From a virus (Duplodnaviria > Heunggongvirae > Uroviricota > Caudoviricetes), in IMG/VR virus record IMGVR_UViG_3300045921_000484, positions 89,258-153,257 of that record: a stretch of 64,000 nucleotides of DNA, one strand, 5' to 3'. Under the pieces are notes generated by a model, which was not told where the DNA came from, made no database searches, and saw only the letters and a list, made by a program, of their open reading frames with translations. The position numbers and the translations under genes are program-made. Shown piece after piece: positions 2,867 through 51,534 of this stretch; the first letter of the stretch is position 1, and every line of letters starts with the position of its first letter.

Positions 2867-2920
2867 TCGCTCTAAACTTACCTATAACATTTAATATAAT
2901 ATAAAAATGAATAATGGTGA

Positions 2921-7930: not shown

Positions 7931-7934
7931 AAAA

Positions 7935-7957
7935 GGGAACTTCAGTTCCCTTTTTTT
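7935..7957 (+). terminator. Intrinsic terminator after the RNR gene.
   Basis: GGGAAC-ttca-GTTCCC hairpin followed by T7. Confidence 0.7.
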
Positions 7958-8279
7958 ATATAAAATATAAATTATAGGTACATATTGTTAAAAGTTAAAT
8001 TGATTTGAATGAAAAAAAATTACTATTTTAGCACTATAAAAAATCCATCTTTGAGAAAAACGAATTTTTCGAGGTTGATATATACTGAACAAATCAAAAA
8101 AAAATTCTAAAAGTTTAAAACTTATTTCAAATTATGGATATAAATTATCCGAATTCGACTTTAAACTTTTTGAAATTTTGGAGATAAAAGAAAAAAACGT
8201 TCTTTAACATATTAAAAAAATTCCAGTAGTGAATTGAAGGGTTACTTCGAAAATTGGATTTCAAAAAAAACTCTTTGAT

Positions 8280-8621
8280 AGATTACTCTGGTCTATATAA
8301 TTAAAAGCAAACATAGCGATAGTTTGAGATACTTCGTAAATTACAACTATGATTCATATCAAGTGTTTAGCTGACAGCGAAAACTACCTGTCCTGATAAC
8401 TAAATAAGTCAGGTTATAAACAGGTGAAAAGTCCGGAAAATACTCCGTTAAAAGATTAAGGAATTCATAAACTTCCTTCAAAAAAAGATATGAGTGAGAT
8501 GTACACTTAAAATATCGGCAAAGTTTCGACAGAATTCTTTGTATCGCTCAGACTAAATTTACTTGTTTGTAAAAATATAAAAGACCAGATTAAACAGAAA
8601 TGTTAGTCTGGTCTTTTTTTC
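8280..8621 (+). ncRNA. Candidate structured non-coding RNA (possibly Y-RNA-like) immediately upstream of the Ro60/TROVE gene.
   Basis: The 7958-8647 interval is the longest ORF-free stretch in the window. The 8280-8620 part is locally GC-richer. It contains the nested hairpin ACCTGTCCTGA..TCAGG..ACAGGT (8385-8427) and ends in its own intrinsic terminator (8582-8621). Confidence 0.3.
8582..8621 (+). terminator. Intrinsic terminator closing the ORF-free region upstream of the Ro60-like gene.
   Basis: AGACCAGA..(16-nt loop)..TCTGGTCT followed by T8. Confidence 0.65.
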
Positions 8622-8647
8622 TATAATTAAAATAAAAAAAAACATAT

Positions 8648-10099
8648 ATGTCAAAATTTAACACAACATTACCAAAACAGAAAACTTTAACTGAAAACCT
8701 TGCAGGTGGTCAAGCTTATGCTCAATCTGATGAGTTAGCTCTTGTATCATTGTTATTAACATCATTTGTTAATAACCAGTTTTATAGAAGCGCTAAAGGA
8801 TCTTTAGATGAACTTAAAAATCTAGCATCTAAAATAAAAGATAAGGAGTTTGTTGCTAAGGCGGCTATCTATGCTCGTGACCGTTTCGGCATGAGAAGTA
8901 TTACACACGCTCTTGCTGGTGAATTAGCCTCTGAGTTAAATGGTAAGGAATGGGGTAAGAAATTCTATGATAAAGTAGTTGTTCGTGTTGATGATATGAC
9001 TGAGATTCTTTCATATTACCTTGCTTATAAGACTAACAAGGATAATCCAAAATTCCCAAATGCCTTAAAGAAGGGATTTGCTAAGGCTTTTGATAAATTT
9101 GATGGATATCAGTTAGCTAAGTATAGAGGTGAGAATAAGGAAGTAAAACTTGTTGATATTGTTAATATTGTTCACCCAGTTCCTACACAGAGGAACAAAG
9201 AAGCATTGTCTTTACTTATAAAGGGTGAGTTAAAGAATGCTGATACCTGGGAGTCTAAGTTGTCACAAGCTGGTCAAGTAGCTGAGTCTGAGGAAGATTT
9301 AGCATCACTAAAGGCAGATGCTTGGAAGAGTCTAATTTCTGAAAGAAAAATTGGATATTTTGCTTTACTAAAAAATCTTAGAAACATCATTTTTCAGGCA
9401 CCAGATTCGCTACCATCAGCTTGTGAATTACTAACAGATGAAAGATTAATTTCTAAGTCTAGAGTTCTTCCATTTAGATTTGCCACAGCTTATGAAGAAA
9501 TTAGTAAGTTAGGTTCTTCTACTGAGGTTAGAAATGTTCTTGTCGCTATCAATAAGGCATTGGATATTTCAGTTGTTAATGTTCCTATATTTGATGGTGA
9601 TACTCTTGTAGTATTAGACGTATCTGGTTCTATGAGTGGCAAGCCATCCGAAATAGCTTCATTGTTTGGTGCCATCTTAGCTAAGTCTAATAACTGTGAT
9701 GTTATGACATTCTCAACTAACTCACAGTATGTGTCTTACAATCCTATGGATTCTGTAATGACCATTAGAAATGGATTTAAATTTTCTGGCGGTGGTACCA
9801 ACTTTAAATCTATTTTCCAAAATGCTAACAAGAAGTATGATAGATTTATTATTCTATCGGATATGCAATCTTGGATTGGATATAATACTCCCTCTGCTGA
9901 GTTCGCTCAATATAAGAAGAAGTTTAATGCAAATCCGTATGTTTACTCATGGGACCTTGCAGGATTAGGAACATTACAATTTCCAGAAAATAATGTCTTT
10001 GCTTTAGCTGGATTCAGTGATAAAGTATTTGATATTATGAAGCTAATGGAAACTGATAAGAAGGCTCTTTTAAATGAAATTAAAGCTATTCAGTTTTAA
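8648..10099 (+). CDS. rsr: TROVE-domain (Ro60/Rsr-like) protein with C-terminal von Willebrand A domain.
   Basis: N-terminal TROVE-like signature (LAGGQAY....L.SLLL..F.NNQFYRS). vWA MIDAS motif VLDVSGSM (DxSxS) near residue 320. Size 483 aa. Confidence 0.7.
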   Translation: MSKFNTTLPKQKTLTENLAGGQAYAQSDELALVSLLLTSFVNNQFYRSAKGSLDELKNLASKIKDKEFVAKAAIYARDRFGMRSITHALAGELASELNGKEWGKKFYDKVVVRVDDMTEILSYYLAYKTNKDNPKFPNALKKGFAKAFDKFDGYQLAKYRGENKEVKLVDIVNIVHPVPTQRNKEALSLLIKGELKNADTWESKLSQAGQVAESEEDLASLKADAWKSLISERKIGYFALLKNLRNIIFQAPDSLPSACELLTDERLISKSRVLPFRFATAYEEISKLGSSTEVRNVLVAINKALDISVVNVPIFDGDTLVVLDVSGSMSGKPSEIASLFGAILAKSNNCDVMTFSTNSQYVSYNPMDSVMTIRNGFKFSGGGTNFKSIFQNANKKYDRFIILSDMQSWIGYNTPSAEFAQYKKKFNANPYVYSWDLAGLGTLQFPENNVFALAGFSDKVFDIMKLMETDKKALLNEIKAIQF

Positions 10100-10103
10100 C
10101 AAA

Positions 10104-10131
10104 AAACCCACTTTTTTAAGTGGGTTTTTTG
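10104..10131. terminator. Intrinsic terminator (A-run/T-run on both sides, potentially bidirectional).
   Basis: AAACCCACTT-tttt-AAGTGGGTTT then T-run. The same stem sequence recurs at 58801-58819. Confidence 0.7.
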
Positions 10132-10338
10132 TTAATCTTTCCATTCATAGAATGATTGAATGCTTACATTTTTTGTCTTTTTATTTTACTTGAAGTAGAA
10201 TGGTATATCACCCTACTTGAGATGATGAAATATCACACACTTTAGCTATCGATAGAGTTAATTAGTTAATTAGCGAAATATCAATTTCTCCATATTAACT
10301 AATAACTATTGACCTTCAGCATTTTCAAAATTCGTATC

Positions 10339-11172
10339 TCATTTAAATCTTGAATTTCTTATTATTAATTTAACATGTGTTGAGTGTGTAATTTTCACAC
10401 CAAAGTCTTTGAATACCTGTTCTTGTAAGAATGGTAGTATAAAAGTTTCCTCTTTTGTTATCTTATATGAAGATGGTATTTTCTTTTTAAGTGTTTCTAA
10501 AGTAATAGGTAGATAGTTTTCATTTACTTCTCTATTCCAGTTATCTGTGTATTTATATTTCAATAGGAAGTGAACAAATGTTCTATAACTATTTCCTATA
10601 TTTTCCCATCTATCTTCGAATGATGATAGATATCTATTATCTGCTTTCTTTCTTATTTTTTTAACATCCTCTTTGAATTTCTCTATTTCATTTCGGTGCA
10701 TTTGCACAGATGGTATCATATCTCTTATTGTTATCCATTTGAAATCACCACCAAATACTTGATTGTCCCAGAATTTTCTAACTACATTTGGATGTGAATA
10801 TGAATATACCTCATGAACAACTGAACTTAGGTTTAATAACGGACTTCTATATTTAGATACTTCTAATATAACATCACTCCATTTATTTGTTAATAATGCT
10901 TTATCTCCTAATTTATCAGATGCCTTTTTGAGCATTTCACTATCAAGATCATACCCTATTATCTTAACATTTGGTTTTAACATTTGAATCTTTGATAGGA
11001 AAGTACCATTAGCACATCCGAAGTCAACAATTACATCAAAGTCAACATCATTAATGAAGAATAGTTTGTCACTCATCCCTTTTTCCATTTCTGATATGTA
11101 TTTATCATAATTAGAGATAGGTTTCTCACCAACTAACTCTTCTAGGAATAATTCCCAACTAAGTATGTTCAT
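10339..11172 (-). CDS. Class I SAM-dependent methyltransferase (substrate unknown).
   Basis: Motif I VIVDFGCANGTF, motif II-like KIIGYDLD. 277 aa. Confidence 0.6.
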   Translation of the reverse strand: MNILSWELFLEELVGEKPISNYDKYISEMEKGMSDKLFFINDVDFDVIVDFGCANGTFLSKIQMLKPNVKIIGYDLDSEMLKKASDKLGDKALLTNKWSDVILEVSKYRSPLLNLSSVVHEVYSYSHPNVVRKFWDNQVFGGDFKWITIRDMIPSVQMHRNEIEKFKEDVKKIRKKADNRYLSSFEDRWENIGNSYRTFVHFLLKYKYTDNWNREVNENYLPITLETLKKKIPSSYKITKEETFILPFLQEQVFKDFGVKITHSTHVKLIIRNSRFK

Positions 11173-31012: not shown

Positions 31013-31036
31013 GACCGATTAAGTTAAGTATGATAT

Positions 31037-31110
31037 GTACAAATATGAGAAGTAAATTTTTTCATTAAAAAAATTAAACAAATTAAGATTTATTTCTTAT
31101 ATTTGTTTTT
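31037..31110 (+). repeat. Copy of the recurrent intergenic element (ATGAGAAGTAAAT...TTCTTATATTTG) with TAnnTTTG -7 box at 31098-31105.
   Basis: Matches the 49521-49649 element. Most copies lie in the 44.2-51 kb array. Confidence 0.5.
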
Positions 31111-31168
31111 ATATTTAGTTATTTAAATTTTATTGGATTATCAGAAAGTGAAAAAAAATAAAGCATTT

Positions 31169-31297
31169 ATGTTATTGCTCAGTGAAAAAGATTATAAGTT
31201 TTCTGTTGATGTTATAAATAGTGAGAATATAACTTTCATAACAATACTTAAAACTGGTGAGAAAGTTAATTTTATTGATTATGTTAAAAATAATTGA
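31169..31297 (+). CDS. Tiny ORF (42 aa) downstream of the promoter element. Not in the supplied track (under 60 aa).
   Basis: ATG at 31169 to TGA at 31295-31297, read by hand. Confidence 0.25.
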   Translation: MLLLSEKDYKFSVDVINSENITFITILKTGEKVNFIDYVKNN

Positions 31298-31381
31298 ATA
31301 TAACGGTTATAGTAGCCTTTGTAGAATTGTTTATGATAAACTTAATAATACATATATAGAAACAAAACAATTTAAATTGAA

Positions 31382-38870: not shown

Positions 38871-39044
38871 ATGAAAACATATACTTGTATTAAAGATAAA
38901 GTCTTCATCTTTCAAGGTAGTTTTAATGGTAAATATGAATTTAAGGTTGGTGATACTATCACTTGTAATTTTGATGGAAGATTCTATATTTTCCCAAATG
39001 GTGGGAAGGTATATAGTGAAATTTTTAAGAAATATTTCATTTAA
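38871..39044 (+). CDS. Small ORF (57 aa). Preferred over the overlapping 38865..39083(-) and 38926..39114(+) track ORFs.
   Basis: A-rich leader then ATG. Its 3' half is duplicated as a fragment at 48827-48921, which supports this frame and strand. Confidence 0.4.
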   Translation: MKTYTCIKDKVFIFQGSFNGKYEFKVGDTITCNFDGRFYIFPNGGKVYSEIFKKYFI

Positions 39045-39314
39045 TTTTTTATTTTTTAAAGCTTGGTGGTTTAAGAATTCCAAAGTGTATAGTTATTGTT
39101 ATGCGACATCCTGATGATTTTGATTTTTTAAAAAAAAAACTTAGAATCAATGTAAAAAAGTTGAAAAAAACATTTTTAATTCTTTCCTTCGCGCTTGTTC
39201 GAGTCTTTTATAGTCTGCTGGAGGTGTAGGAAGAGGTATAATTTGGAAAGCATGAACATATAAAACATATTTATTTCCATTGATATAATAGTAAAATAAT
39301 TCTTATTATGTCTT

Positions 39315-41852: not shown

Positions 41853-41885
41853 AATATCCAAATGAGATTTGCAAAATTTCAATAA
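41853..41885. repeat. Right arm of the inverted repeat. Also overlaps the 3' end of LRR paralogue 41879..42790(-).
   Basis: See 41645-41680. Confidence 0.6.
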
Positions 41886-42790
41886 AATCTATAATCCTTA
41901 ATAACCCTTCTTAATTCTTCTTCCTTTTTAGGTTTTCCTATTTCATTTAGGAAATCGATTAATCCATCAAGAATAATTGAATCTCCTTGAATAATGTCCA
42001 TATCATTAAATAATTCTATTTTATCCTTATCTCTAAATAAATTCCATATTTGATATACTGGATTATTAATACAGTAGAAATACCCACCAATTGATTCCGG
42101 TGCGCCTTCTAAAGAGTTTAGGTTGTTATTGCAACAGTCGAAATGACCACCAACCGATTTAGGACCTCCTTTTAGTGAGGTTAGTTTGTTAAAGGAACAT
42201 ATGAAATGACCACCAACCGATTTAGGACCGCCTTCTAGTGAAGTTAGGTTGTTATTGTAACAGTAGAAATCCCTACCAACCGATTTAGGACCTCCTTCTA
42301 GTGATGTTAGTTTATTATTGTAACAATAGAAACTACCACCAACTGATTCAGGACCGCCTTCTAATGAGGTTAGGTCGTTATGGGAACAGATGAAATAACC
42401 ACCAACAGATTTGGGACTGCCTTGTAACGAAGTTAGATTGTTATAGGAACAAATAAAATTACCACCAACCGATTTAGGACCTCCTTCTAGTGATGTTAGT
42501 TTATTATTGTAACAGTAGAAACCACCACCAACTGATTCAGGACCGCCTTCTAGTGAAGTTAGTTTGTTATTGTTGCAGTAAAAATTACCGGTAACATTTC
42601 TAAATTTAAGTGGTAGTTTATCTAATTTTTCATAGGATAGATTAACATTACCATCTACATCAATAGATCCATCTTTATTTATAGTAAAATTTTTTATACC
42701 ATATTTCTCGCAGATAGATTCAATATCCTGATTAGATTCAAATAATCTATATTGAATTAGGTGTTTCATAATGTGTTTATTACTTTTCAT
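41879..42790 (-). CDS. LRR-like 20-aa tandem-repeat protein, paralogue 3 of 4.
   Basis: 303 aa, nine or so repeats. N-terminus MKSNKHIMKHLIQYRLFES, so it carries the small-gene N-terminal module plus the family N-terminus. C-terminal module conserved. Confidence 0.65.
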   Translation of the reverse strand: MKSNKHIMKHLIQYRLFESNQDIESICEKYGIKNFTINKDGSIDVDGNVNLSYEKLDKLPLKFRNVTGNFYCNNNKLTSLEGGPESVGGGFYCYNNKLTSLEGGPKSVGGNFICSYNNLTSLQGSPKSVGGYFICSHNDLTSLEGGPESVGGSFYCYNNKLTSLEGGPKSVGRDFYCYNNNLTSLEGGPKSVGGHFICSFNKLTSLKGGPKSVGGHFDCCNNNLNSLEGAPESIGGYFYCINNPVYQIWNLFRDKDKIELFNDMDIIQGDSIILDGLIDFLNEIGKPKKEEELRRVIKDYRFY

Positions 42791-43117
42791 GTTCGTAAAT
42801 ATTTTTATGTATATATTAAAAAAAATCTAAATATTTCCTCGGAAATTAACTTCCGTGTTAGAAAATTTTATAAAACCAGCCTCTAAAAATATACCCCGAT
42901 TATCTTAACCTTTTTTAAAGTTGAGTATAATCAGGGTAAGTACAAAACGTTATACACAATACTACTTTTGTGTTTCAAATTTATACTTTATCAAAATCAA
43001 ATTTTATCAAATTCTTACTTTTCATCAATTCTGTTTTAACTCTAACCAATCATCACATGGTATGGTTGGTTTAATTCTATTTGTATTTAAAAAAAGAAAA
43101 ATGAGATTTACAAAATT

Positions 43118-43942
43118 TCAATAAAATCTATAATCCTTAATTAAACTTCTTAATTCTTCTTCACTTTTAGGCTTGCCTATTTCGTCTAGAAAATAGATTA
43201 ATCTATCAAGAATAATTGAATCTCCTTGAATAATATCCATATCATTAAATAATTCAATTTTATCTTTATCCTTAAATAATTTCCATATTTGATAGACTGG
43301 ATTATTACTACAGTCTAAATCCCCTTCAACTGATTCGGGACAACCTTCTAGTGAAGTTAGTTTGTTATTGAAACATTTGAAATCTTCACCAACCGATTTA
43401 GGACCCCCTTCTAGTGAAGTTAGGTTGTTATTTTGGCAGTAGAAACTAAAACCAACCGATTTAGGACTGCCTTCTAGTGAAGTTAAATTGTTATAGGAAC
43501 AGATAAAATCACCACCGACTGATTCAGGACCTCCTTCTAGCGAAGTTATTTTGTTATAGGAGCAGTTGAAATGTCCAACAACCGATTTAGGACAGCCTTG
43601 TAGAGAGGTTAGTTTGTTATTGAAACACCAGAAACTGTCACCAACCAATTTAGGGCAACCTTCTAGTGATGTTAGTTTGTTATTGTAACAGTAGAAACCA
43701 CCACCAACCGATTTAGGACCTCCTTCTAGTGAAGTTAGATTATTATTGGAACAGTTGAAATTACCGGTAACATTTCTAAATTTAATGGGTAGTTTATCTA
43801 ATTCTTTATAGGATAGATCAACATCACCATCCACATCAATAGATCCATCTTCATTTATAGTAAAATTTTGTATACCATATTTCTTGCAGATAGATTCAAT
43901 ATTTTTGGGTCCAAATAATCTATATTGAATTAGGTGTTTCAT
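43118..43942 (-). CDS. LRR-like 20-aa tandem-repeat protein, paralogue 4 of 4.
   Basis: 274 aa. Same architecture. Upstream region 43943-44030 nearly identical to 42791-42860. Confidence 0.65.
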   Translation of the reverse strand: MKHLIQYRLFGPKNIESICKKYGIQNFTINEDGSIDVDGDVDLSYKELDKLPIKFRNVTGNFNCSNNNLTSLEGGPKSVGGGFYCYNNKLTSLEGCPKLVGDSFWCFNNKLTSLQGCPKSVVGHFNCSYNKITSLEGGPESVGGDFICSYNNLTSLEGSPKSVGFSFYCQNNNLTSLEGGPKSVGEDFKCFNNKLTSLEGCPESVEGDLDCSNNPVYQIWKLFKDKDKIELFNDMDIIQGDSIILDRLIYFLDEIGKPKSEEELRSLIKDYRFY

Positions 43943-44196
43943 AATGTGTTTATTATTTTTTATGTTCGTAAATTATTTTTATGTATATATTAAAAAAAAA
44001 TCTAAATATTTCCTCGGAAATACATCTAACTCACCACGTTATTTAGTAGAACATAATTTATTTTCAACTCTTTTTTTGGAAGATGAAACTGAATTTTTAG
44101 AAAAGTCGAAAGAACTTGGTGTTTTGAAAAAATGTTGTATAACGATACTCAGATATATTTAGGTTTTTTTAATATATATATACATAAAAATAATTT

Positions 44197-44436
44197 ATGA
44201 AGATGAAAAATAATAAACACATACAAAGTTTCAACGAACATCAAGAAAACTTGAATGGTGAACTCTCGAAGAGTGCTTCATCGAGTATATCTGATGTTAG
44301 TGGTAGTTTTACTAAAAAAGATTTGTTTGAAGCATTTTCATACTACGCTTTTAAAAGTATCAGTAATCAACCGTATAACGAAGATGAGTTATTAAAAGAA
44401 TTTGAAAAATGGTTCAAAAGAAAATATAAAAAATAA
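44197..44436 (+). CDS. Small protein with MK..NKHIxSFNEHQENL N-terminal module.
   Basis: 79-aa ORF. First gene of the cassette-like array. Confidence 0.45.
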   Translation: MKMKNNKHIQSFNEHQENLNGELSKSASSSISDVSGSFTKKDLFEAFSYYAFKSISNQPYNEDELLKEFEKWFKRKYKK

Positions 44437-44510
44437 AATTACCACTAAAGGTTGGGTATATATGAAGTACCCTCGTAGAAAATTAAATCATATAATTTAT
44501 ATTATGTTAA

Positions 44511-44663
44511 AGTTATGATTTTTTATTGGTGGTATGATGTGGATGTTGGACGATGATTACTTTACCAGAAGTAAGATTATTAGGTAGTAAATATTCAAAA
44601 AAAAAAATTATGGATTACAGTTTGATATGCTTTGTAGTTGCACTTATTATTAATTGTTTATAA
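44511..44663 (+). pseudogene. Frameshifted copy of the 56-aa hydrophobic-peptide gene. Direct repeat of 50828-50979.
   Basis: About 93% identical to 50828-50979 with a 1-nt insertion (ttactttacc versus ttacttacc) that creates an early stop. Confidence 0.5.
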
Positions 44664-44691
44664 AGGCTGATGGTAAACAATCTTTTTAATT

Positions 44692-45201
44692 TTGTTATTG
44701 GAAATTAATATATACATTATGATATATCTGAAAATGTATGAAGATTTTGATAATTCCACATTTGATGTTAAAACAAGATATAATTATACTCACCCAAAAA
44801 CAAAAAGAACTCTTTATTTTCAACATGAATATTTTACAGCAAGAGTGAATGGTAAGGTAGTAAGTTCTTGTATAATAACTTATCCCAATTTATCTCCAAA
44901 TAAGTTTACAGAGGATGGTCGGAAATTATTCATTATCTATACAGGCATGGAAGAACTATTTAATGATAAGGATGATAAGTTTGTTAAAATATATGATGTT
45001 AAAAGTAGAAAAAATGGTAAAGGATATGGTAAACTCCTTTTTGATAAACTAAAAGAGTATCTATCATCAAAAGGTAAAACGAGAATTTATCTTGATGTTA
45101 ATAAGGAAAACTTGGGAGCACATGAATTTTACAAGAAAATAGGTTTCAAAAAGAGATATGATGGTGTTTTTGATATATCATATGTGCTTAATTTCAAATA
45201 A
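44692..45201 (+). CDS. GNAT-family N-acetyltransferase.
   Basis: Motif A RKNGKGYGKLLFDKL. C-terminal HEFYKKIGFK. About 150-169 aa depending on start. Confidence 0.55.
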   Translation: MLLEINIYIMIYLKMYEDFDNSTFDVKTRYNYTHPKTKRTLYFQHEYFTARVNGKVVSSCIITYPNLSPNKFTEDGRKLFIIYTGMEELFNDKDDKFVKIYDVKSRKNGKGYGKLLFDKLKEYLSSKGKTRIYLDVNKENLGAHEFYKKIGFKKRYDGVFDISYVLNFK

Positions 45202-45418
45202 TTATTTATAACTATTGAGAATGTAATTAGTAACCGATGCAGGATTTTGGGATCACACTTAAATAAATTGGAGAAAAATTTATTAGAATTTGAAACAAAA
45301 AACTTAAATTACATATAAATTTTAAGCAGAAGTAGTAACTTAAATGAACCGTATAACTCGGTTATTACTTATATTCTTTGTTATACACAGTTATTAATTA
45401 AAAAATTATTTTAAAATT

Positions 45419-45601
45419 ATGAGAACAATAAAAATTAAGTTACAGATTGATGGGGTTGATATGGTAACAAGTTTTACCGAAGAAGAATATAATTCAATTA
45501 AAGGGAAAGTGGGATTAGACCCATTACTCTTGACATTAAATAAAATGTGGGATGAGATAAATAAACATGATGATTTGAAAGATAAACCACTTTCTAGGTA
45601 A
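45419..45601 (+). CDS. Small hypothetical protein (array gene).
   Basis: 60-aa ORF. Confidence 0.3.
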   Translation: MRTIKIKLQIDGVDMVTSFTEEEYNSIKGKVGLDPLLLTLNKMWDEINKHDDLKDKPLSR

Positions 45602-45916
45602 TTATGTATACCGTTTTCAAATATGGAATAACTCTATTCGTTTTTGTCGTAGACGAGATTTCAAATTAACATAACTGATGATAGTAAACTTGTTATACAC
45701 AGTACGTATTAATAACTAAAATATAAATTATGAAACTAAAATTAAACAACAAAATCTTCGTTGCAAGATATAATGAAAATGGTAAATTGATTATACCATT
45801 AGATGTGTTAAAGTAACTGAACGCGGCACTTTAAAAAATTGTTTTCCATTATTGAGTAGAAACGAAGATTTTTTTTTGAATTAGTGTATGATTTATATGA
45901 AGTGATACCGTAGTAT

Positions 45917-46003
45917 TGTTTATGACGTTTACAAATAAATATGAGAAATAAATCTTTTCATTAAAATTAGACAAAGTAAGATTTATTTCTTATAATACAA
46001 ATG
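45917..46003 (+). repeat. Copy of the cassette boundary/promoter element.
   Basis: TTGTTTATGACGTTTACAAATAAATATGAGAAATAAATCTTTTCATTAAAATTAGACAAAGTAAGATTTATTTCTTATAATACAAATG. Confidence 0.6.
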
Positions 46004-46025
46004 AAAATTAAAAAAAATTAATGAA

Positions 46026-46244
46026 ATGGATATTTGGAAAAACATAGACATCAAAAAACAAGATGGTGATAAAGATTTAATAAAATCTGCTAATGCTTTA
46101 ACTTTGGATGAAAGTGACTGGAATGAAAAATATCCAGGTCTTGTTTTCACAGATACAGATTATAATTTCTATAAGAAATTAGGTAGGTGTAAATATAATA
46201 TTGAAAGTGATGATGACACAACTTCTTTGGGAAGATTTCATTAA
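46026..46244 (+). CDS. Small hypothetical protein (array gene).
   Basis: 72-aa ORF right after the element copy. Confidence 0.4.
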   Translation: MDIWKNIDIKKQDGDKDLIKSANALTLDESDWNEKYPGLVFTDTDYNFYKKLGRCKYNIESDDDTTSLGRFH

Positions 46245-46335
46245 TTATTTTTTATTACATAAGCAGTTATTAACGAAACTTAAATTAATGAAATAATTGC
46301 TTATATTTGTTGTTATAAAATCTTTTTTTTTAATT

Positions 46336-46614
46336 ATGGAAAATTTCACATCAAAACTAATTTCAAATTTTGTAGAAGGAATTAACATTCTTAATTCAAA
46401 TAAACCGAAATGTGTCGAATACAATCATTTTGTATCGTCTAATAATTCAATAAAATTTGGAACAAATAAATGGGTAGATTTTGAAAGTAAGGAAGGTAAA
46501 AAATTGCAAGAATTAGGTTGGTATATGTATAATGGATTATGGAATTTTAATATTTATTCTGAAAATGGTGTCCCAGATTTTTCACCACTGAGTAAATTAA
46601 AAAATGTTTTATAA
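46336..46614 (+). CDS. Small hypothetical protein (array gene). Start revised to the ATG at 46336.
   Basis: The track ORF 46297..46614 begins at a TTG inside the TATATTTG -7 box (46303-46310). ATG at 46336 gives a 26-nt leader. Stop is followed by TATAACG. Confidence 0.4.
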   Translation: MENFTSKLISNFVEGINILNSNKPKCVEYNHFVSSNNSIKFGTNKWVDFESKEGKKLQELGWYMYNGLWNFNIYSENGVPDFSPLSKLKNVL

Positions 46615-46637
46615 CGTTCTTTTTGTATGCAAATAAA

Positions 46638-46921
46638 TGAATTTAATATGAAACACATACAAAATTTTAATGAAAATCAACAAAATAAAAAAAGCATATT
46701 TAGTTAAATTAACTGATGCTGATGATGATGTTTGTGCATTTTTGATTGATGAAGAAACTGCAAATAGTCCTAACATGTGTAATGATTTTGCTGTTAAATT
46801 ACCTTGGACAGACAAAGTTTTGGACGGTGATAATGATAGTTATACAAGGGATTATGCAAAAACAAAAGATATATTAGAAATAATCAAAAATGCTGAAAAA
46901 ATGGTTATTTTGTTGATTTAG
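46638..46921 (+). CDS. Array gene apparently frameshifted at an A7 run: an N-terminal module ORF (MKHIQNFNENQQNKKSIFS*) in one frame continues as 46670..46921 in another.
   Basis: ATG at 46638 encodes the canonical MKHIQNFNENQQ module. Stop after 19 codons. The track ORF 46670..46921 overlaps in a different frame. The A7 run at 46684-46690 is the junction. Confidence 0.35.
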
Positions 46922-47071
46922 ATAATGAATTTAACTTCGTTCATTATTAAGGAAAAAGATATTGTTGTCTTTAATTTCTAAAATTCGGTAATCGGGTATT
47001 ATATGGAAATTGAAGGAGACTTTGGTATAATAAAAGAAAAGTTTATAAAACAGTAATTTCATAAAAAAAAC

Positions 47072-47266
47072 ATGGAAATAAAATTTTGGCATAGTTGCGG
47101 ATTTGTTGGGTCATCGTACTCAATGGATGTTAATGGTAAACATTATTCGTTTGGTTTTGATGATGAAAATGAATGTAAGATTAAAGCATCAAAAATTTTA
47201 TTGGATGAATATAGTATTGATATAAAACCAGAAGATATTGAATTTGTGTGGGATGGTACTCTTTAA
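47072..47266 (+). CDS. Small hypothetical protein (array gene).
   Basis: 64-aa ORF. Stop followed by CACATAACGG. Confidence 0.35.
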   Translation: MEIKFWHSCGFVGSSYSMDVNGKHYSFGFDDENECKIKASKILLDEYSIDIKPEDIEFVWDGTL

Positions 47267-47558
47267 TTCCACATAACGGATTGCAAATAATCACTAACGT
47301 CTTGATTTATATGTAGTTTGAGATTAAGCAGACAAAATAAACAAGATATTATGAAATTTAAATGTGAATAATATCTTTGAACGTGTTTCAAAAAACATCT
47401 TCTTTTTTGTCATACTTAGAAATGGAAAAGAATTAATTAAAAAAAGATTCAGATGTTATTTTTTTGCTTTAAGTTTATTGATAAATACATTAGAAGAGTT
47501 GTTGAAATAGATATATTTAGGTTTTTTTTTAATATATACTAAAAAATAACACACGAAG

Positions 47559-47771
47559 ATGAAAGATTTAAAACACATAAAAAGATTTAACGAGTCAGAA
47601 GAAAATTTGAATATATCTGATGTTAGTTATAGTGAAAAATTAAATAAGGCTGAAGAATTATTACAAAGTTTAGTTTATTTATCACAAACAGAAGAACTAA
47701 AAAGTTTTTTTGAAAATAATTATATCAGTGCTTATATGAAAGAAGTGGAAAAATTTTTAGATTCTCTTTAA
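47559..47771 (+). CDS. Small protein with MKDLKHIKRFNESEENLNISDVS module.
   Basis: 70-aa ORF. Upstream TTTTTAATATATACTAAAAAATAA leader shared with 49865 and 47828. Confidence 0.45.
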   Translation: MKDLKHIKRFNESEENLNISDVSYSEKLNKAEELLQSLVYLSQTEELKSFFENNYISAYMKEVEKFLDSL

Positions 47772-47827
47772 TTTTTCAAAAAAATAATTTAAGTTTTTAA
47801 TATTTACATAAAAAATAATTTACGAAC

Positions 47828-48211
47828 ATGAAAAGTAATAAACACATAAAAAGTTTCAACGAACATCAAGAAAACTTGGAATTTTTTGAAAAGACATTAA
47901 GTAGAATAAAAATTAAATATAAGGGAGATCCGAAGTCTTTATACCTAATTATATATACTGGATACGATGACTTTTTAAGTCATAATATTTATTATAAAGT
48001 TGATACAAAAAAAGAGGGTATTAAACTATATAAAAAAGAAGAAAAAAAATCAGCTATTGTAAATGGTTATAATATATACAATTACAAAGAAGTTTTTGAT
48101 ATGTATAAAAATATAGATAATATTCTTAAAAAATTTAATAATATAAGTGAGTGGGTAAAACGTGAGAATAATATGTTGAACAAATTTGGATTTGAGGTAG
48201 AGGAAATTTAA
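47828..48211 (+). CDS. Small protein with MKSNKHIKSFNEHQENL module.
   Basis: 127 aa. Leader and first ~16 codons near-identical to those of LRR paralogue 41879(-) and of 44197. Confidence 0.45.
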   Translation: MKSNKHIKSFNEHQENLEFFEKTLSRIKIKYKGDPKSLYLIIYTGYDDFLSHNIYYKVDTKKEGIKLYKKEEKKSAIVNGYNIYNYKEVFDMYKNIDNILKKFNNISEWVKRENNMLNKFGFEVEEI

Positions 48212-48454
48212 TTTTTTTTTTATTACATTACACATAACGTCCGCAAATATAAAACGTTTTAACACTAAACTTTAATTGAAAAATAGAATATGAATTAAAA
48301 ATACAACATTGGAAAACAAATAAAAATGTTTTATATTTGTTGTTATAAACAGTAAAATAAAAAACTTATGAAAAAACTAATTTTTGAAAAAAATATACAA
48401 AGTAAGATTTATTTTTTTTATATTTGTTGTTATATTTAATTAAATAAAAATTAT

Positions 48455-48601
48455 ATGGAGGAATTAGAAAATCAAATTGAAAAAATAAAACAAATCATCA
48501 ATGATGGTTCTTTTGAAAATAAATGGGTAAGTGATGATACTCTTATCATTTTAGAAAATCAACTAATTATTTTAGAAACACTTAAAAAACTAATGAAATG
48601 A
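48455..48601 (+). CDS. Tiny ORF (48 aa) after the promoter element copy at 48391-48454. Not in the track.
   Basis: MEELENQIEKIKQIINDGSFENKWVSDDTLIILENQLIILETLKKLMK*. ATGAAATGA overlap with the next gene. Confidence 0.3.
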   Translation: MEELENQIEKIKQIINDGSFENKWVSDDTLIILENQLIILETLKKLMK

Positions 48602-48786
48602 AATTTACAGAAGATGAGAAAAGATATTTGGATAAGTTAAGAAGAAACTATCCTAATAGAGTCATACCTACTGATGAAATTGTAAAAAATGCTCTCTCTA
48701 AAATGAGAAGAGATGGTAGTGAAATAGTTATTGATGATTTGATTATCAGAACTTGGGATGGAATTGTTGAAATGGAAGTGATTTGA
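48598..48786 (+). CDS. Small hypothetical protein (array gene).
   Basis: 62-aa ORF. Confidence 0.35.
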   Translation: MKFTEDEKRYLDKLRRNYPNRVIPTDEIVKNALSKMRRDGSEIVIDDLIIRTWDGIVEMEVI

Positions 48787-48826
48787 TTTTTGTTTAATTG
48801 AATATAACGTTTCTAAGATATATTTA

Positions 48827-48921
48827 GTGATACTATAACTTGTAATTTTGATGGAAGATTCTATATTTTCCCAAATGGTGGGAAGGTATATAGTAAAATT
48901 TTTATAAAATATTTCATTTAA
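48827..48921 (+). pseudogene. 3' fragment (start-less) of the 57-aa gene at 38871..39044.
   Basis: About 95% nt identity to 38946-39044 including the stop codon. No ATG upstream. Sits between two TATAACG boundary motifs. Confidence 0.55.
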
Positions 48922-49157
48922 TTTTTTATTGTTTATAACGTTTCTCAGATATATCTTGTTTGTGCAGTATATAATGTATTTGAATGATTTGTCATTTATA
49001 TCTATTCACTATGAAAAAAAAACAGTGAACATTTCCTGTATTTAGATCCAACAAAATATAATGCAAAAAAAGATGTTAGAAAAGATTTAATAAAAATTTA
49101 TCCTGAATAAAAAAATAATTCTTTTACTTTTTCGAATGTTTAATATATACATAAACG

Positions 49158-49448
49158 ATGATAACAACACAAAATTTAACAGAATTAGGATTCAATGAAA
49201 TACTTGATATATTCAACGGAAAACAAGTTTGGGTTTTAGGTGAGGAAGATACTGAAATATGTGGAAACCCTTGTAGATTACCAATATTATATTATAACAT
49301 AGAAACCCAAACTTGTAAGGTGATACGAGGCGAATTTTGTGTTGTTCAACGAGAATGTAAATCAGAGGAAGAAATTAGAAAATTTGTAGAATCTATTAAT
49401 TTTTTATTTCATATATCCGTTGTTATAAATAGTAAAAGAACCTATTGA
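49158..49448 (+). CDS. Small hypothetical protein (array gene) with CxxC..CxxC-like cysteine pattern.
   Basis: 96-aa ORF (EICGNPCRLP...QTCKVIRGEFCVVQREC). Confidence 0.4.
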   Translation: MITTQNLTELGFNEILDIFNGKQVWVLGEEDTEICGNPCRLPILYYNIETQTCKVIRGEFCVVQRECKSEEEIRKFVESINFLFHISVVINSKRTY

Positions 49449-49520
49449 ACAAACATTTTCGGATGTGATTAAAGATTCTTACGATAAGATAAAAGACAAT
49501 TTAGAACCACCACTTTAAGG

Positions 49521-49649
49521 TTTTTTTATTGTTTATAACGTTTGCAAATATGAGAAGTAAATCTTTTCATTAAAAAATTAGACAAAGTAAGATTTATTTC
49601 TTATATTTGTTGTTATATTTAGTTAAATAAAAATTATACAAATAAAAAA
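49521..49649 (+). repeat. Most complete copy of the cassette boundary plus promoter element (-7 box TATATTTG at 49603-49610).
   Basis: TTGTTTATAACGTTTGCAAATATGAGAAGTAAATCTTTTCATTAAAAAATTAGACAAAGTAAGATTTATTTCTTATATTTGTTGTTATATTTAGTTAAATAAAAATTATA. Partial copies at 31037, 45917, 48391, 50665 and 50970 (tandem). Confidence 0.65.
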
Positions 49650-49793
49650 ATGACAGTAGTAATTATAATTGGAATCGTTTGTGGAATACTTTGGGTATAT
49701 CTTAAAACAAAAGATGATTGGGATAATATGACGAAACCACCTAAAGGTTGGATGCAACACAAAGGATGGAGACAAAAAATAAATAAACCATAA
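49650..49793 (+). CDS. Tiny membrane-peptide ORF (47 aa) driven by the element. Not in the track.
   Basis: MTVVIIIGIVCGILWVYLKTKDDWDNMTKPPKGWMQHKGWRQKINKP*. Confidence 0.3.
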   Translation: MTVVIIIGIVCGILWVYLKTKDDWDNMTKPPKGWMQHKGWRQKINKP

Positions 49794-49864
49794 TTTTTGT
49801 TTAATTTAATATAACGTTTCTATTTAGGTTTTCTTTTTAATATATACCTTAAACATAATTTAAC

Positions 49865-50164
49865 ATGATGAAAAATAAGAATATACAAAATTTTGGAGAG
49901 TTCAATGAAAACTTGAATATATCTGATGTTAGTGATAGTGATTTATTTCAAGCGGAATACAACGGTGAGAAAATCAAAATTAAAAGAGAATTTTTGAAAC
50001 AAGGAGAAGAAAGAGAGTTATTAAAACATCTCAAAAAATTTAATTTAGGTTCGGGACACGAAGAAATGAAACTTTCAAAAATTGACAATAATAATTTTGT
50101 TTTTCGTTTAGAAACATACACAGGTGGTCCAACACAAACAATATATTTCAAGAGACTGAAATAA
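49865..50164 (+). CDS. Small protein with MMKNKNIQNFGEFNENLNISDVSD module.
   Basis: 99-aa ORF. Leader shared with 47559. Confidence 0.45.
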   Translation: MMKNKNIQNFGEFNENLNISDVSDSDLFQAEYNGEKIKIKREFLKQGEERELLKHLKKFNLGSGHEEMKLSKIDNNNFVFRLETYTGGPTQTIYFKRLK

Positions 50165-50214
50165 ATCATTATCACTAACGGACGAGTGTAAACTTAGTTA
50201 AAAACACGGATAAT

Positions 50215-50466
50215 ATGTACACAAGTTTTTATATAGCAGAAAATAGATTGGATGAACTAAAGTCTTTTATTAGGGATTTTACACCAACAGTAAGATTTAA
50301 ACACAACCCTATTAAAGAAGGTAAACAATGGTTTATTGCGTTAACTATGGAAGTAGAAGACAGTAATAAATTGAACGAACTGTTTAACAAGTGGCATAAT
50401 GAAGATAACCCACCTAAAATCCCTAATAAAAGTATTTGGAAACGAATGCTTAGTGTTTTTAATTGA
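50215..50466 (+). CDS. Small hypothetical protein (array gene).
   Basis: 83-aa ORF. Confidence 0.4.
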   Translation: MYTSFYIAENRLDELKSFIRDFTPTVRFKHNPIKEGKQWFIALTMEVEDSNKLNELFNKWHNEDNPPKIPNKSIWKRMLSVFN

Positions 50467-50663
50467 GTTTATACTTTGTTATGTTTAGTGAGGAACGAAC
50501 AATTAAACATAACGCTTGGGTATATATTGACAAATTGAAGTCTGAATCTTTTGAAGGTTGGACTGAAGATGAAACTAAAGGTTATTTAACCGCATGTGAA
50601 TCTATTAAACAGAAGGTAAAAAAGATTCAGAATTCAACAAGACTGGATTCTATGGAGGAATAA
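50463..50663 (+). CDS. Small hypothetical protein (array gene).
   Basis: 66 aa. Stop immediately followed by the boundary element. Confidence 0.35.
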   Translation: MSLYFVMFSEERTIKHNAWVYIDKLKSESFEGWTEDETKGYLTACESIKQKVKKIQNSTRLDSMEE

Positions 50664-50664
50664 T

Positions 50665-50730
50665 TTTTATGTTTTATAACGTTTGCAAATATGAGAAGTA
50701 AATCTTTTCATTAAGGTTTATACTAATTTG
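50665..50730 (+). repeat. Boundary element copy (5' half only).
   Basis: TTTTATGTTTTATAACGTTTGCAAATATGAGAAGTAAATCTTTTCATTAAGG. Confidence 0.6.
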
Positions 50731-50802
50731 TTAATTTTCTACAAGGGTACTTCATATATATTTTAATTGGGTATTATATACCTTGTTATAAACAGTTAAT
50801 TT

Positions 50803-50973
50803 ATGATAGATTTTATTTTACAAGCATCAGTTATTATTTTTTTTATTGGTGGTATGATGTGGGTGTTGGACGATGATTACTTACCAGAAGTAAGACTATT
50901 AGGTAGTAGATATTCAAAAAAAATTATGTATTACAGTGCGATATGCTTTGTAGTTGCACTTATTATTAATTGT
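50803..50973 (+). CDS. 56-aa hydrophobic peptide gene, intact copy of 44511-44663. Not in the track (under 60 aa).
   Basis: MIDFILQASVIIFFIGGMMWVLDDDYLPEVRLLGSRYSKKIMYYSAICFVVALIINCL*. Confidence 0.35.
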
Positions 50974-51046
50974 TTATAACGATTGCAAATATGAGAAGTA
51001 TTGTTTATAACGATTGCAAATATGAGAAGTAAATCTTTTCAATAAA
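50970..51046 (+). repeat. Two perfect tandem 31-nt copies of the boundary element core (TGTTTATAACGATTGCAAATATGAGAAGTAT) plus AAATCTTTTCAATAAAATAG. Abuts the truncated recombinase.
   Basis: Copy 1 at 50970-51000, copy 2 at 51001-51031. Confidence 0.7.
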
Positions 51047-51508
51047 ATAGAAAATATCAAACATAAATCAATTCTAACTTTAACATATTCTGTTGGACTT
51101 AGAGTATCGGAAATTGTTAATTTAAAAATTGAAGATATTGATTCTAAAAGAATGTTGATTCATATTAAAAATAGTAAAGGTAAGAAAGACCGAATAGTTC
51201 CTCTTTCACAAAATGTTTTAGTACTACTTAGAGAGTACTGGAAGGAATATAAGCCGCAAAATTACCTTTTTAATGGTCAAAAGAATAATAAATATTCGAT
51301 TCAATCTTGTCAAAAACTTTATAAAAAGTATATAGATCAAAATTCTTCAATTCACACACTAAGACATTCTTCACTTACAAGTCTTTTAGAAAATGCAACA
51401 GATTTGAGAATTATTCAGAAAATGGCAGGACACTCTTCTTCTAAAACGACTGAAATTTACACTCGTGTTTCTAATCAATTATTAAATAAAGTTAAACTTA
51501 CAGTTTAA
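51026..51508 (+). pseudogene. 5'-truncated tyrosine recombinase (phage integrase catalytic domain only).
   Basis: Frame open from the TGA at 51023-51025. Translation ..KHKSILTLTYSVGLRVSEIVNLKIEDIDSKRMLIHIKNSKGKKDRIVPL...HTLRHSSLTSLLENATDLRIIQKMAGHSSSKTTEIYTRV carries the R..HxxR..Y catalytic signature. No N-terminal arm or core-binding domain. Homology runs upstream of the first ATG (51152) up to the repeat element. Confidence 0.6.
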
Positions 51509-51534
51509 TATATACAGAAAAATTATTTTACTTA

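Follow-up and report, generated by a model that had tools for sequence, protein, structure and literature searches.

A small-gene array in a large phage is probably the remnant of an integron-like gene-cassette platform

Here we describe an array of small genes in a 64,000-nucleotide stretch of a tailed-phage genome (positions 89,258 to 153,257 of IMG/VR record IMGVR_UViG_3300045921_000484; hereafter the window, whose own numbering is used throughout). Between 44.2 and 51.0 kb the window carries ~20 small open reading frames (ORFs) and ORF fragments, all on the + strand, which are punctuated by a repeated TAACG-containing element and end in a truncated tyrosine recombinase. We conclude that this array is probably the remnant of an integron-like gene-cassette platform of large Bacteroidota phages, a reading to which we give a probability of roughly 0.65. 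The element folds into a hairpin whose stem covaries and whose base pairs are biased toward one strand; arrays of such hairpins lie with a fixed polarity beside a Xer-like recombinase in related viral contigs, about 45 of which hold intact versions; single cassettes bounded by TAAC are shared between these arrays; and the junction next to the recombinase is polymorphic between near-identical genomes.

Results

A strand-specific motif punctuates the array

With its G+C content of 23-34% and its genes for a ribonucleotide reductase, a DnaB-like helicase, a UvsX-like recombinase, a PhoH-like protein, and one tRNA, the window is a piece of a large phage of virulent type. LR756500.1, an uncultured phage of 462 kb, was the only GenBank phage with a nucleotide match to 44-52 kb, and its similarity was restricted to the repeated intergenic element. 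The tRNA was the sole match in an Rfam scan of the window, exact-protein look-ups returned nothing beyond fragments of the same phage, and a flanking 446-aa protein had no relatives among the viral contigs searched. When the cassette ORFs were compared with Pfam and PHROG, the only match was a GNAT acetyltransferase.

The original prediction, made from the letters of the window alone, described about 18 small genes at 44.2-51.0 kb, almost every stop codon being followed by an ATAACG-containing element, and interpreted the region as gene cassettes next to a site-specific recombinase. The array is indeed there, and the motif is associated with stop codons, although less regularly than claimed: 15 of the 21 array ORFs and fragments (~70%) had a TAAC no more than 30 nt from their stop codon compared with 8 of 33 control ORFs, with two of the misses being decayed cores that read TAAAG. 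On the + strand, 17 of the 42 TAACG copies of the window fall within 44.1-51.05 kb, giving a density of 2.45/kb inside the array and 0.44/kb outside it (binomial P = 7e-7), while the - strand of the same interval holds a single copy. The motif is therefore not equally frequent elsewhere but ~5-fold enriched in the array and strand-specific. An 18-mer from the element, TATAACGTTTGCAAATAT, was found in 9 copies at up to 3 mismatches where 0.32 were expected, 7 of them on the + strand between 45.6 and 51.0 kb. The element is not limited to the array, since a further copy lies at 31028-31114.

Several details reported for the array were also reproduced, namely the tandem copies of the element (50964-51045), the ~150-bp direct repeats (44519-44663 and 50839-50979, 95-98% identity), the start-less 3' fragment of the gene at 38871-39044 (48827-48935, 95% identical), the frameshifted duplicate gene (44511 versus 50803), and a broken ORF at 46638, which belongs to the family that we call A. 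Others had to be given up. The palindromes AACGTT and TTTGCAAA are incidental and the palindromic description of the element is wrong; the supposed duplication of AGTAAATCTTTTC/AAGTAAGATTTATTTC is instead the two arms of one ~30-bp hairpin (49536-49615); and the "-7 box" TATATTTG, which occurs only in the canonical type of hairpin, was dropped as a general feature.

The motif is the 5' foot of a covarying hairpin

ATAACG is the 5' foot of a hairpin. The site has a 5-bp foot, TAACG paired with YGTTA and including a conserved G·T, followed by a 3-4 nt bulge on the 5' side and a stem of 13-25 bp; the bulge was confined to the 5' side in 49 of 62 hairpins, and the stem was otherwise continuous. 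The canonical copy at 49536-49615 folded with -28.8 kcal/mol as RNA (z = -5.6) and, as DNA, with -13.1 kcal/mol on the + strand compared with -9.2 kcal/mol on the - strand, and a covariance model likewise scored it at 59.4 bits on the + strand and 20.8 bits on the - strand. The same model retrieved 31028-31114 (E = 0.014) and 48235-48346 (E = 0.057). Elsewhere in the array the same foot closes different stems, at 44140-44299, 45209-45383, 48235-48345, and 49812-49931.

A generic scan of the window for TAAC...GTTA was noise at -14 kcal/mol (23 and 17 hits versus 5-17 in shuffles) and meaningful only at -19 kcal/mol or below, and it was superseded by a control-class test across related loci, the regions around recombinase genes of viral contigs that are described below and carry L numbers. 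A hairpin with a duplex of -12 kcal/mol or lower opened at 41% of 203 upstream + strand TAACG copies, compared with 3-7% in three control classes. In an alignment of 17 sequence-diverse hairpins, 96.1% of cells were paired relative to 72.6% in shuffles and 40-53% in slid controls; compensatory changes were present in 17 of 25 stem pairs, and the covariation score of 0.562 (0.168 in shuffles) was reached by none of 500 shuffles. The TAACG·UGUUA pairing was invariant in these hairpins. Beyond it the feet include GTCTAAC, GCCTAAC...GTTAGGC, and ACATAAC...GTTATGT, and the stems fall into many unrelated sequence types, with G+C-rich ones in the most distant loci. The folding that the original prediction could not demonstrate is thus present, and it covaries.

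The stems also distinguish the two strands. At 16 stem positions of 62 unique hairpins we counted 110 G·T and 21 T·G pairs compared with 4 A·C and 9 C·A pairs, and this ratio of 131 to 13 argues for selection on folding of the gene-sense strand.

Hairpin arrays lie upstream of a Xer-like recombinase

The recombinase frame of the window (51026-51508, + strand) lacks an ATG and the N-terminal SAM-like domain, in agreement with the earlier description of a start-less, catalytic-domain-only enzyme: Pfam matched only the Phage_integrase catalytic domain (PF00589, E = 4e-34), and in tblastn the frame aligned to residues 110-265 of a 265-aa homologue from a related viral contig with 77.6% identity. 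Its catalytic residues are retained. Five private substitutions at positions invariant in ten homologues, the highest number of the sequences compared and including H252R beside the catalytic tyrosine, are only suggestive as a count, and in a dN/dS comparison synonymous sites were saturated (pS ~0.7), so that the truncation could be neither dated nor judged from it.

Scanning viral contigs for the full-length recombinase gave 40 loci; the proteins were 41-100% identical, and the contigs measured up to 465 kb. For density statistics we used 33 non-redundant loci and the 6 kb upstream of the recombinase. TAACG occurred at 1.64/kb upstream on the recombinase strand and at 0.41-0.47/kb in the other three combinations of side and strand, and its density fell from 2-3.4/kb within 2.5 kb of the recombinase to ~0.7/kb beyond 4 kb.

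The enzyme belongs to the neighborhood of Xer and IntI. Its closest solved structures were XerA (4A8E, 122 bits), followed by VchIntIA (2A3V, 92 bits, in a match broken into two stretches) and XerD. NCBIfam models for XerA, IntI, and XerD all matched, every one below its family cut-off: XerA reached 185.6 against a cut-off of 220, XerD 146 against 330, and XerC 143 against 335, and the integron-integrase models TIGR02249 (149.6 bits against 265) and PRK15417 (98.7 against 435) both matched as two separate stretches that left out the middle. No dif-like 28-bp site was recognized by eye, without a systematic search for one. In one search, 7849 of the 8000 candidates scored belonged to the recombinase family at E <= 1e-20.

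Loss of the enzyme beside arrays is recurrent. L041 and L045 carry a frameshifted recombinase copy (6001-6790, 790 nt), and in L043 (6001-6489) the recombinase is cut off after residue 169. L036 (IMGVR_UViG_3300042691_036629, 5750-6471) has the catalytic domain joined in frame to a family-A ORF, with a breakpoint no more than 2 codons from that of the window; either the gene was truncated a second time, independently, at the domain boundary, or this is a hotspot of recombination. L001, which is LR756500.1, holds a dense + strand TAACG/hairpin array at 6860-10670 that is a counterpart of the clusters of attC sites lacking integron integrases (CALINs).

Distant cultured relatives of the recombinase are encoded by Polaribacter and Cellulophaga phages. 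The Polaribacter phages Freya_1-10 (GenBank MT732463-MT732472) and Danklef_1-5 (MT732458-62), the Leef and Ingeline phages, and L055 have recombinases that are 37-41% identical; the Danklef match covers only residues 107-265. The distance from the start of the record to the integrase ranges from 104 to 4201 nt and tracks genome length, with Freya_10 having ten small ORFs in this interval. Clear TAACG hairpins were not seen upstream of the Freya_10 integrase; the region contains a GTATAAC...GTTATAC inverted repeat and a thrice-repeated ..TTTTGTTATACGGTGTTGG.

A conserved junction site beside the recombinase is polymorphic

Nearly all full-length recombinase genes have, 60-76 nt ahead of their ATG, a site of the form YTAAC-TAT(T/C)ATATAT(A/C)WA, where the hyphen separates its two halves. 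It is kept down to 41% protein identity, including in the Bacteroidota genome contigs of 40-45% G+C, those of Sunxiuqinia and Salinimicrobium. In sequence form it is TAAC followed by TATTATATAT. Its second half resembles the promoter-like motif TTAATATATAC, other copies of which are not preceded by TAAC.

Two pairs of genomes differ at precisely this site. L026 and L027 are 99.75% identical over 6.8 kb downstream, and L021 and L024 are 100% identical over 2.6 kb downstream; in both pairs homology ends exactly at TAAC. The break point reads TAA^C TATCATATAT, with the caret marking the break, and lies ~76 nt upstream of the recombinase start. A metagenome scan with the downstream 30-mer revealed four different upstream partners, joined as ...TAA followed by CTATCATATATC. 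Since homology is lost at the site itself rather than in the shared recombinase gene, we argue for site-specific exchange, and the polymorphic junction would then reflect insertion.

A contig end lay within 3.5 kb upstream of the recombinase in 15-16 of the 33 loci compared with three downstream, as would be expected if arrays vary within populations. The contigs that end 30-2500 nt upstream are L008, L014-L016, L018, L019, L021, L022, L026-L028, L031, L033, L034, L044, L056, and L057, and such ends include one in the isolate genome of Sunxiuqinia indica.

Between the last hairpin and the junction site we frequently observed a reversed short hairpin, GTTAT-nnnn-TCGTTTTAATG-nnnn-ATAAC (L007 5842-5940, L012 5900-5945, L027 250-300, and L030). 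In it, the 3' foot of a site base-pairs with the TAAC that comes next, an arrangement resembling an empty cassette. The loop TCGTTTTAATG also occurs in a 48-nt mini-hairpin that is nearly unchanged across 10 loci.

Single cassettes are shared by unrelated arrays

Relatives of the array are not co-linear and invariant; instead, unrelated arrays share single cassettes with TAAC at their bounds. The cassette that we call g16 lies at 49154..49540 in the window (ORF 49158-49448, 3' arm TTCATATATCCGTTGTTA at ~49408-49428), where the ORF and its trailing sequence are 90% identical to L012 up to the terminal TTGTTTATAACG and unrelated beyond it. Relative to L012 the window ORF is frameshifted, and the 5' TAACG and 5' arm of its relatives are absent. 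At 86-95% amino-acid identity, g16 recurs in at least 5 contexts besides that of the window. In these relatives it always extends from TAACG..GCGGATATATGAATGT to TATAACG, with a different type of hairpin downstream, and the arms GCGGATATATGAA and TTCATATATCCGT enclose the ORF; L051 has an intact recombinase 1.5 kb downstream of its g16 copy.

Three further cassettes behave in this manner. L009 4005-4426 and L038 3527-3948 are 97.6% identical from TAACG to ATAACG with differing surroundings, and L028 408-888 and L051 1979-2459 are 99.4-99.8% identical between TAACG and ATAACG, while the recombinase genes of these two loci are only 75% identical. The first cassette of the window, g1 (44140-44452), is common to L028 and bounded at TAACG, ending in CACTAAAG in the window and in CACTAACG in L028. 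Ordinary homologous exchange fails to account for such shared cassettes because their flanks have only the 4-5 nt core in common. The GNAT cassette has a single relative (L054), whose context is not TAAC-bounded, and is uninformative in this respect.

The window copy is truncated and decayed

In the window, a canonical hairpin is cut short after its 5' arm and the first bases of its loop, and recombinase homology takes over at 51042 (at the boundary between ...GTAAATCTTTTCA and ATAAAATAGAAAAT). The loop sequence CATTAAAAAATTAGA resembles GATAAAATACAAAA of the L002 recombinase, which makes a short-homology deletion likely; L002 (IMGVR_UViG_3300033069_001560) encodes a full-length recombinase of 265 aa at 2399-3196. 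Such a deletion, from the hairpin loop to about codon 110, would have taken both the N-terminal domain of the recombinase and the junction site, a motif that is absent from the entire 64-kb window. Subsequent decay would have converted cores to TAAAG or TGACG, orphaned or split arms, and left gene fragments behind; two cores of the window read TAAAG and one TGACG, and several arms are orphaned. Since residues 1-110 and the junction site are missing and the cores have decayed, the array can reasonably be considered either a fossil or reliant on a recombinase copy beyond the 64 kb, much as the original prediction suggested when it called the recombinase dead; the five private substitutions fit with this view.

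The features of the array, all on the + strand, are as follows from its upstream end. The family-A hairpin site at 44140..44299 (5' arm TAACGATACTCAGATATATTTAGG, 3' arm GAGTATATCTGATGTTA, duplex -17.3 kcal/mol) contains in its loop the promoter-like motif TTAATATATAT and the start of ORF 44197-44436 (79 aa), an architecture that recurs in L007, L025, L028, and L030. It is followed at 44447..44486 by an orphan 5' arm whose core reads TAAAG where L028 keeps TAACG. The 3' partner of this arm is found 6.3 kb off at 50731-50790 (inverted repeat I7; 30 nt, 97% complementary), and the intact form of this hairpin type is present in L014 and L020. Each of the split arms adjoins a copy of a 58-aa gene, which suggests a rearrangement or duplication bracketing the whole array. 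One copy is the intact ORF at 50803..50979, whose stop codon is the TAA of TATAACG; the other, at 44511..44663, is a frameshifted duplicate (direct repeats D9, D14, and D15, 95-98%) that terminates in the decayed core TTGTTTATAAAG.

The GNAT acetyltransferase ORF (44719..45201, 160 aa; Pfam Acetyltransf_1, E = 7e-12) is preceded by a decayed mini-hairpin (44660-44700) and an TTAATATATAC motif and followed by a hairpin site with its own stem sequence and the core TAACT (45209..45383, arms TAACTATTGAGAATGTAATTAGTAACCGA on the 5' and TCGGTTATTACTTATATTCTTTGTTA on the 3' side), whose duplex of -22.6 kcal/mol is well under shuffle noise. A canonical copy with the core TGACG and a decayed outer stem lies at 45921..45996 (repeats D3 and D11; 18.7 bits in the covariance model, E = 0.44). 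Between 46026 and 47266 there are four small cassette ORFs (46026-46244, 46336-46614, the broken family-A ORF 46638/46670-46921, and 47072-47266) with no Pfam or PHROG family match, and none of the three TAACG cores at 46612, 47274, and 47295 has an intact partner arm. Two family-A cassettes follow at 47509..48211 (ORFs 47559-47771 and 47828-48211; repeat families D2, D4, and D13). The 5' TAACG core of the first hairpin has been lost there, and the stretch is 88.9% identical in nucleotides to L002 across the leader and first 25 codons.

The hairpin site at 48235..48345 (duplex -19.1 kcal/mol; 23.1 bits in the covariance model, E = 0.057) combines the outer stem of the canonical element (TAACG..GCAAATAT / ATATTTGTTGTTA) with a different inner stem (AAAACGTTTT / AAAATGTTTT). 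Next, 48389..48786 holds the 3' arm only of a canonical element (48389-48447) and ORFs 48455-48601 and 48598-48786 (repeat families D5-D7, D11, and D19), and 48805..48961 holds two orphan 5' arms, TAACGTTTCTAAGATATATTTAG and TAACGTTTCTCAGATATATCTTG, around the start-less 3' fragment (48827-48935; D10 and D12) of the gene at 38871-39044, which is 95.4% identical to 38950-39058. Beyond g16, the intact canonical site at 49536..49615 comprises TAACG, a TTT bulge, a 22-bp stem, a 23-nt loop, and TGTTA, and copies 87-99% identical to it occur in L001-L004, L007, L011, L013, L041, and L043. Four cassette ORFs occupy 49650..50663 (49650-49793; the family-A ORF 49865-50164, with its hairpin at 49812-49931; 50215-50466; and 50463-50663), with TAACG cores at 49812, 50176, and 50510. 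At 50677..50790 a canonical 5' arm without matching 3' arm (50677-50714; D3) precedes the displaced 3' arm of I7. Following the 58-aa ORF, two tandem 31-nt canonical 5' arms (50964..51041, cores at 50977 and 51008; D3) close the array, and the second continues directly into the recombinase frame.

A solitary cassette-like unit lies outside the array at 31028..31305 on the + strand. It consists of a canonical hairpin lacking the TAACG core (31028-31114, 26.1 bits), a 54-aa ORF (31133-31297), and TATAACG (31299-31305).

Family-A genes and promoter-like motifs

Several small genes share the family-A N-terminus MKxxKHIxSFNExxENLNISDVS and have unrelated C-termini; they are located at 44197, 46638, 47559, 47828, and 49865 in the window and also occur in L002, L012, L013, L025, and L036. 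The ENLNISDV codons serve as the 3' arm in a hairpin of ~130 nt, the 5' arm being upstream of the promoter, and the apparent protein conservation is therefore partly a nucleic-acid constraint.

The TTAATATATAC motif precedes start codons of both strands by 5-30 nt (34 hits with at most 1 mismatch versus 10.5 expected), for example at 11177-, 20678+, 30219-, 35193-, 42809-, 43983-, 44705+, 47529+, 49140+, 49837+, and 51505+, and a longer form, ATATTTAG(G/A)TTTTTTTAATATATACATAAAAATAATTTACGAACATG, is recurrent. It is probably the phage's own promoter class, and the motifs in hairpin loops would likewise be promoters. Two - strand leucine-rich-repeat genes (41879-42790 and 43118-43942, the latter with six 63-nt tandem repeats at 43311-43828) carry the family-A promoter/leader sequence at 42809 and 43983 (I1, I2, and I4). 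Between them, 42881-42955 on the - strand gave a weak covariance-model match with ATAACG (17.9 bits, E = 0.62) and may be a site in the opposite orientation.

Discussion

A proposed cassette platform

Our results support the gene-cassette interpretation, given that relatives are not co-linear, the motif is enriched, and the recombinase is Xer/IntI-like. Intact relatives have a 265-aa Xer-like recombinase at the downstream end of an array of co-oriented small-gene cassettes. Each cassette starts with a sense-strand site composed of 5'-nnnTAAC-G, a 3-4 nt bulge, a cassette-specific stem of 13-25 bp, a loop of 10 to ~330 nt, and YGTTAnnn-3', and it ends with the TAA of the next TAAC, often the stop codon of its own ORF. 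Promoter-like motifs are frequent in the loops, and in some cassettes the loop also includes the gene start or the whole ORF. The junctions map to TAAC(G), a motif common to both partners, and TAA^C is the presumed cut position. Excision would occur by exchange within TAA^C between two hairpin sites, and insertion next to the recombinase by exchange between a hairpin site and the non-hairpin junction site TAAC-TAT(T/C)ATATAT. The proposed geometry is that of the bottom strand of an integron attC site (RYYYAA^C-G ... GTTRRRY) recombining with attI. We infer that the array recombinase is the enzyme acting on the hairpin sites; its substrate would be folded single-stranded DNA rather than duplex.

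The broader proposition is that large Bacteroidota phages own an integron analogue: a minimal recombinase of Xer type that has no I2 helix would take up, excise, and rearrange self-promoted small-gene cassettes, recombining folded sense-strand hairpins at TAA^C with a junction site beside its own gene. We regard this as an even bet. The cassettes of such a system may include genes for counter-defence or host takeover, and the system would either have arisen by convergence or be related to the ancestor of integrons.

A number of points weigh against the cassette-platform reading. No more than three to four cassette families were encountered in multiple contexts. Although 71 of 181 high-scoring segment pairs between loci begin at TAACG, only 2 end there, and the left boundary is partly trivial because most shared pieces consist of a hairpin and the 5' end of a gene; for mobility we therefore rely on the whole-cassette cases and the near-identical genome pairs, not on these boundary statistics. 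The L001 array has no recombinase within 10 kb. The phage recombinase has no room for an I2 helix, and the hairpin stems have no extrahelical bases. The long-loop hairpins of the window are weak with DNA parameters (z = -1.6 and +1.2), and the G·T bias is equally compatible with RNA folding of the sense transcript. Promoter-like motifs in loops and 3' arms mean that conservation may be partly regulatory; the hairpins may have a regulatory role at the RNA level, and a dual role as recombination site and expression signal is possible. Finally, the relatives are all metagenomic assemblies. We considered chimeric assembly as a source of false junctions and rejected it, as a 4-5 nt core cannot mis-join contigs; a chimera formed via a shared cassette is possible, yet the cassette would still be in two genomes with different flanks.

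Alternative explanations

These RNA-level considerations come together in an alternative modeled on the promoter early stem-loops (PeSLs) of T4-type phages, according to which the hairpins form in the sense transcript and act as terminators, processing sites, or translational masks linked to a promoter located in the loop. The general recombination system of the phage would shuffle the modules, with the tyrosine recombinase as a bystander in a hyperplastic region of early genes. PeSLs themselves are a precedent (PMC2839356, PMC4122927), the cassettes are all co-oriented, and the phage encodes a UvsX-like recombinase. Every hairpin type is found again in many genomes, a possible source of homology for exchange. 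G·U pairs are compatible with RNA, folding is far better under RNA than under DNA parameters, and the genome-wide motif TTAATATATAC lies in many loops. We nevertheless consider this explanation unlikely. The stems lack a trailing U-tract. Shared cassettes are TAAC-bounded on both sides with differing downstream hairpin types and upstream genes, which leaves no flanking homology, and genomes of 99.75-100% identity break exactly at TAAC and not inside the shared recombinase gene. The polarity of the arrays and their decay with distance from the recombinase across 33 loci, as well as the conservation of TAAC at the recombinase promoter but not at other TTAATATATAC sites, also speak against it.

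Alternatively, TAAC-TATYATATAT could be the only site of the recombinase, used for resolution or cyclization in the manner of P1 Cre/loxP or Xer/dif, with the mosaic breaks arising from exchange between co-infecting relatives and the upstream hairpins being unrelated. This would suit a Xer-like enzyme whose gene adjoins a highly conserved site at which homology breaks, but it leaves unexplained the TAAC-bounded single cassettes inside arrays, the common TAAC(G) core of the hairpins, and the strand-specific 4-fold enrichment of TAACG that is limited to the upstream side, and we rate it as improbable.

Two other explanations we rejected as very improbable. Invertons, with the arms as duplex inverted repeats and the downstream gene switched on and off through inversion of the loop by the recombinase, are suggested by inverted repeats around promoter-like motifs beside a tyrosine recombinase with weak NCBIfam hits to tyrosine-type invertases (E = 1e-9 to 1e-10), but the loops of all ~12 canonical copies on 9 contigs have the same orientation in contiguous alignments, duplex repeats would not be expected to show a 10:1 excess of G·T over A·C or a one-sided bulge, and some loops contain whole ORFs. 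Miniature inverted-repeat transposable elements, or a hairpin-recognizing mobile element moved by a transposase encoded elsewhere, would fit an 80-110 nt palindromic element conserved at 87-99% between phages with different flanking genes, but scarcely the many hairpin types that combine unrelated stems with the same TAAC/GTTA foot, the lack of visible target duplications or of a nearby transposase, and the strict co-orientation of the elements with the genes and the recombinase.

Comparison with known systems

The cassette platform that we favor works like an integron without being a member of the integron family. Both have a tyrosine recombinase of the Xer/IntI neighborhood beside a polar array of small, mostly ORFan cassettes, and both have one imperfect hairpin per cassette in which structure is conserved over sequence, with ...AAC/GTT... 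feet and a G after AAC. In both, only one strand folds well, the stop codon often lies within the YTAAC box, identical cassettes with site-bounded ends occur in different arrays, and a non-hairpin site by the recombinase gene, corresponding to attI, is where new sequence joins. Read on the opposite strand, the order is also that of an integron: recombinase (complement), junction site, and cassettes each ending in a hairpin. The bottom strand of attC is cleaved between the A and C of the 5' AAC box, and a G usually follows AAC (PMC2727003), while integron integrases need the I2 helix to act on single-stranded attC (PMC7790495). In contrast, the phage enzyme has 265 aa and no IntI-specific I2 domain. 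Exchange would take place at the 5' foot on the gene-sense strand, making a phage cassette a hairpin plus gene rather than a gene plus attC; the ORFs all lie on the recombinase strand, point toward the recombinase gene, and appear to be self-promoted, whereas integron cassettes are promoterless and read from Pc, with the integrase transcribed divergently; the unpaired central spacer and extrahelical bases that set strand choice in attC are missing from the stem, whose asymmetry derives from conserved G·T pairs and the 3-4 nt bulge on one side; and the host replicon is a large virulent-type phage.

attC-like sites have been found in phage genomes before. CALINs were described in virulent phages, including a phage of Polaribacter (Flavobacteriia) (Qi et al. 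2023, PMC9892861); some of their sites were recombined by IntI1 in an assay, and they were read as integron debris without an integrase. Those are isolated site pairs found with integron models (IntegronFinder), and they may or may not be of the hairpin family reported here; a dedicated phage recombinase, a junction site, and cassette turnover were not described for them. PeSLs, in turn, are composite promoter/stem-loops that flank small ORFs in the hyperplastic regions of T4-type phages, with shuffling and mini-circles (PMC2839356, PMC4122927). Like our sites they are short stem-loop/promoter motifs at small ORFans that mark the boundaries of indels and replacements (Arbiol 2010, Comeau 2014). 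However, PeSLs have one conserved sequence, recombine through homology, and terminate transcription, whereas the stems here are sequence-diverse and without a U-tract, the junctions are cores of 4-5 nt, and the sites are tied to a tyrosine recombinase.

Among Xer-based systems, the integration of CTXphi provides a precedent for an enzyme without the IntI domain using a folded-strand hairpin. XerCD recombines the CTXphi attP hairpin folded from one DNA strand, and its stem mimics a duplex core site. That case involves a single integration site and host enzymes, unlike a cassette array with a phage recombinase. The pdif modules of Acinetobacter plasmids are gene modules that are bounded by Xer sites and shuffled between replicons, as the cassettes would be, but their sites are duplex 28-bp XerC/XerD sites in alternating orientation with no adjacent dedicated recombinase. 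In the full-text literature searched, no recombinase-linked cassette platform of this kind was described in a phage.

Significance

PeSLs are so far the one proposed mechanism for the exchange of small accessory genes in large phages. If our reading is correct, a recombinase-driven cassette platform would constitute a second, programmable route of gene exchange besides these homology-based elements, and a site-specific mechanism would lie behind the hyperplastic regions of big phages. It would also explain the assembly breaks upstream of array recombinases, and the TAACG-hairpin signature could serve as a marker for mobile phage genes in metagenomes. The idea is testable, since the recombinase family is abundant and has distant cultured relatives in Polaribacter and Cellulophaga phages. 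A confirmed platform would bear on whether a Xer-type enzyme uses hairpin sites without an I2 helix, and it would extend the integron principle beyond IntI and beyond bacterial and archaeal chromosomes.

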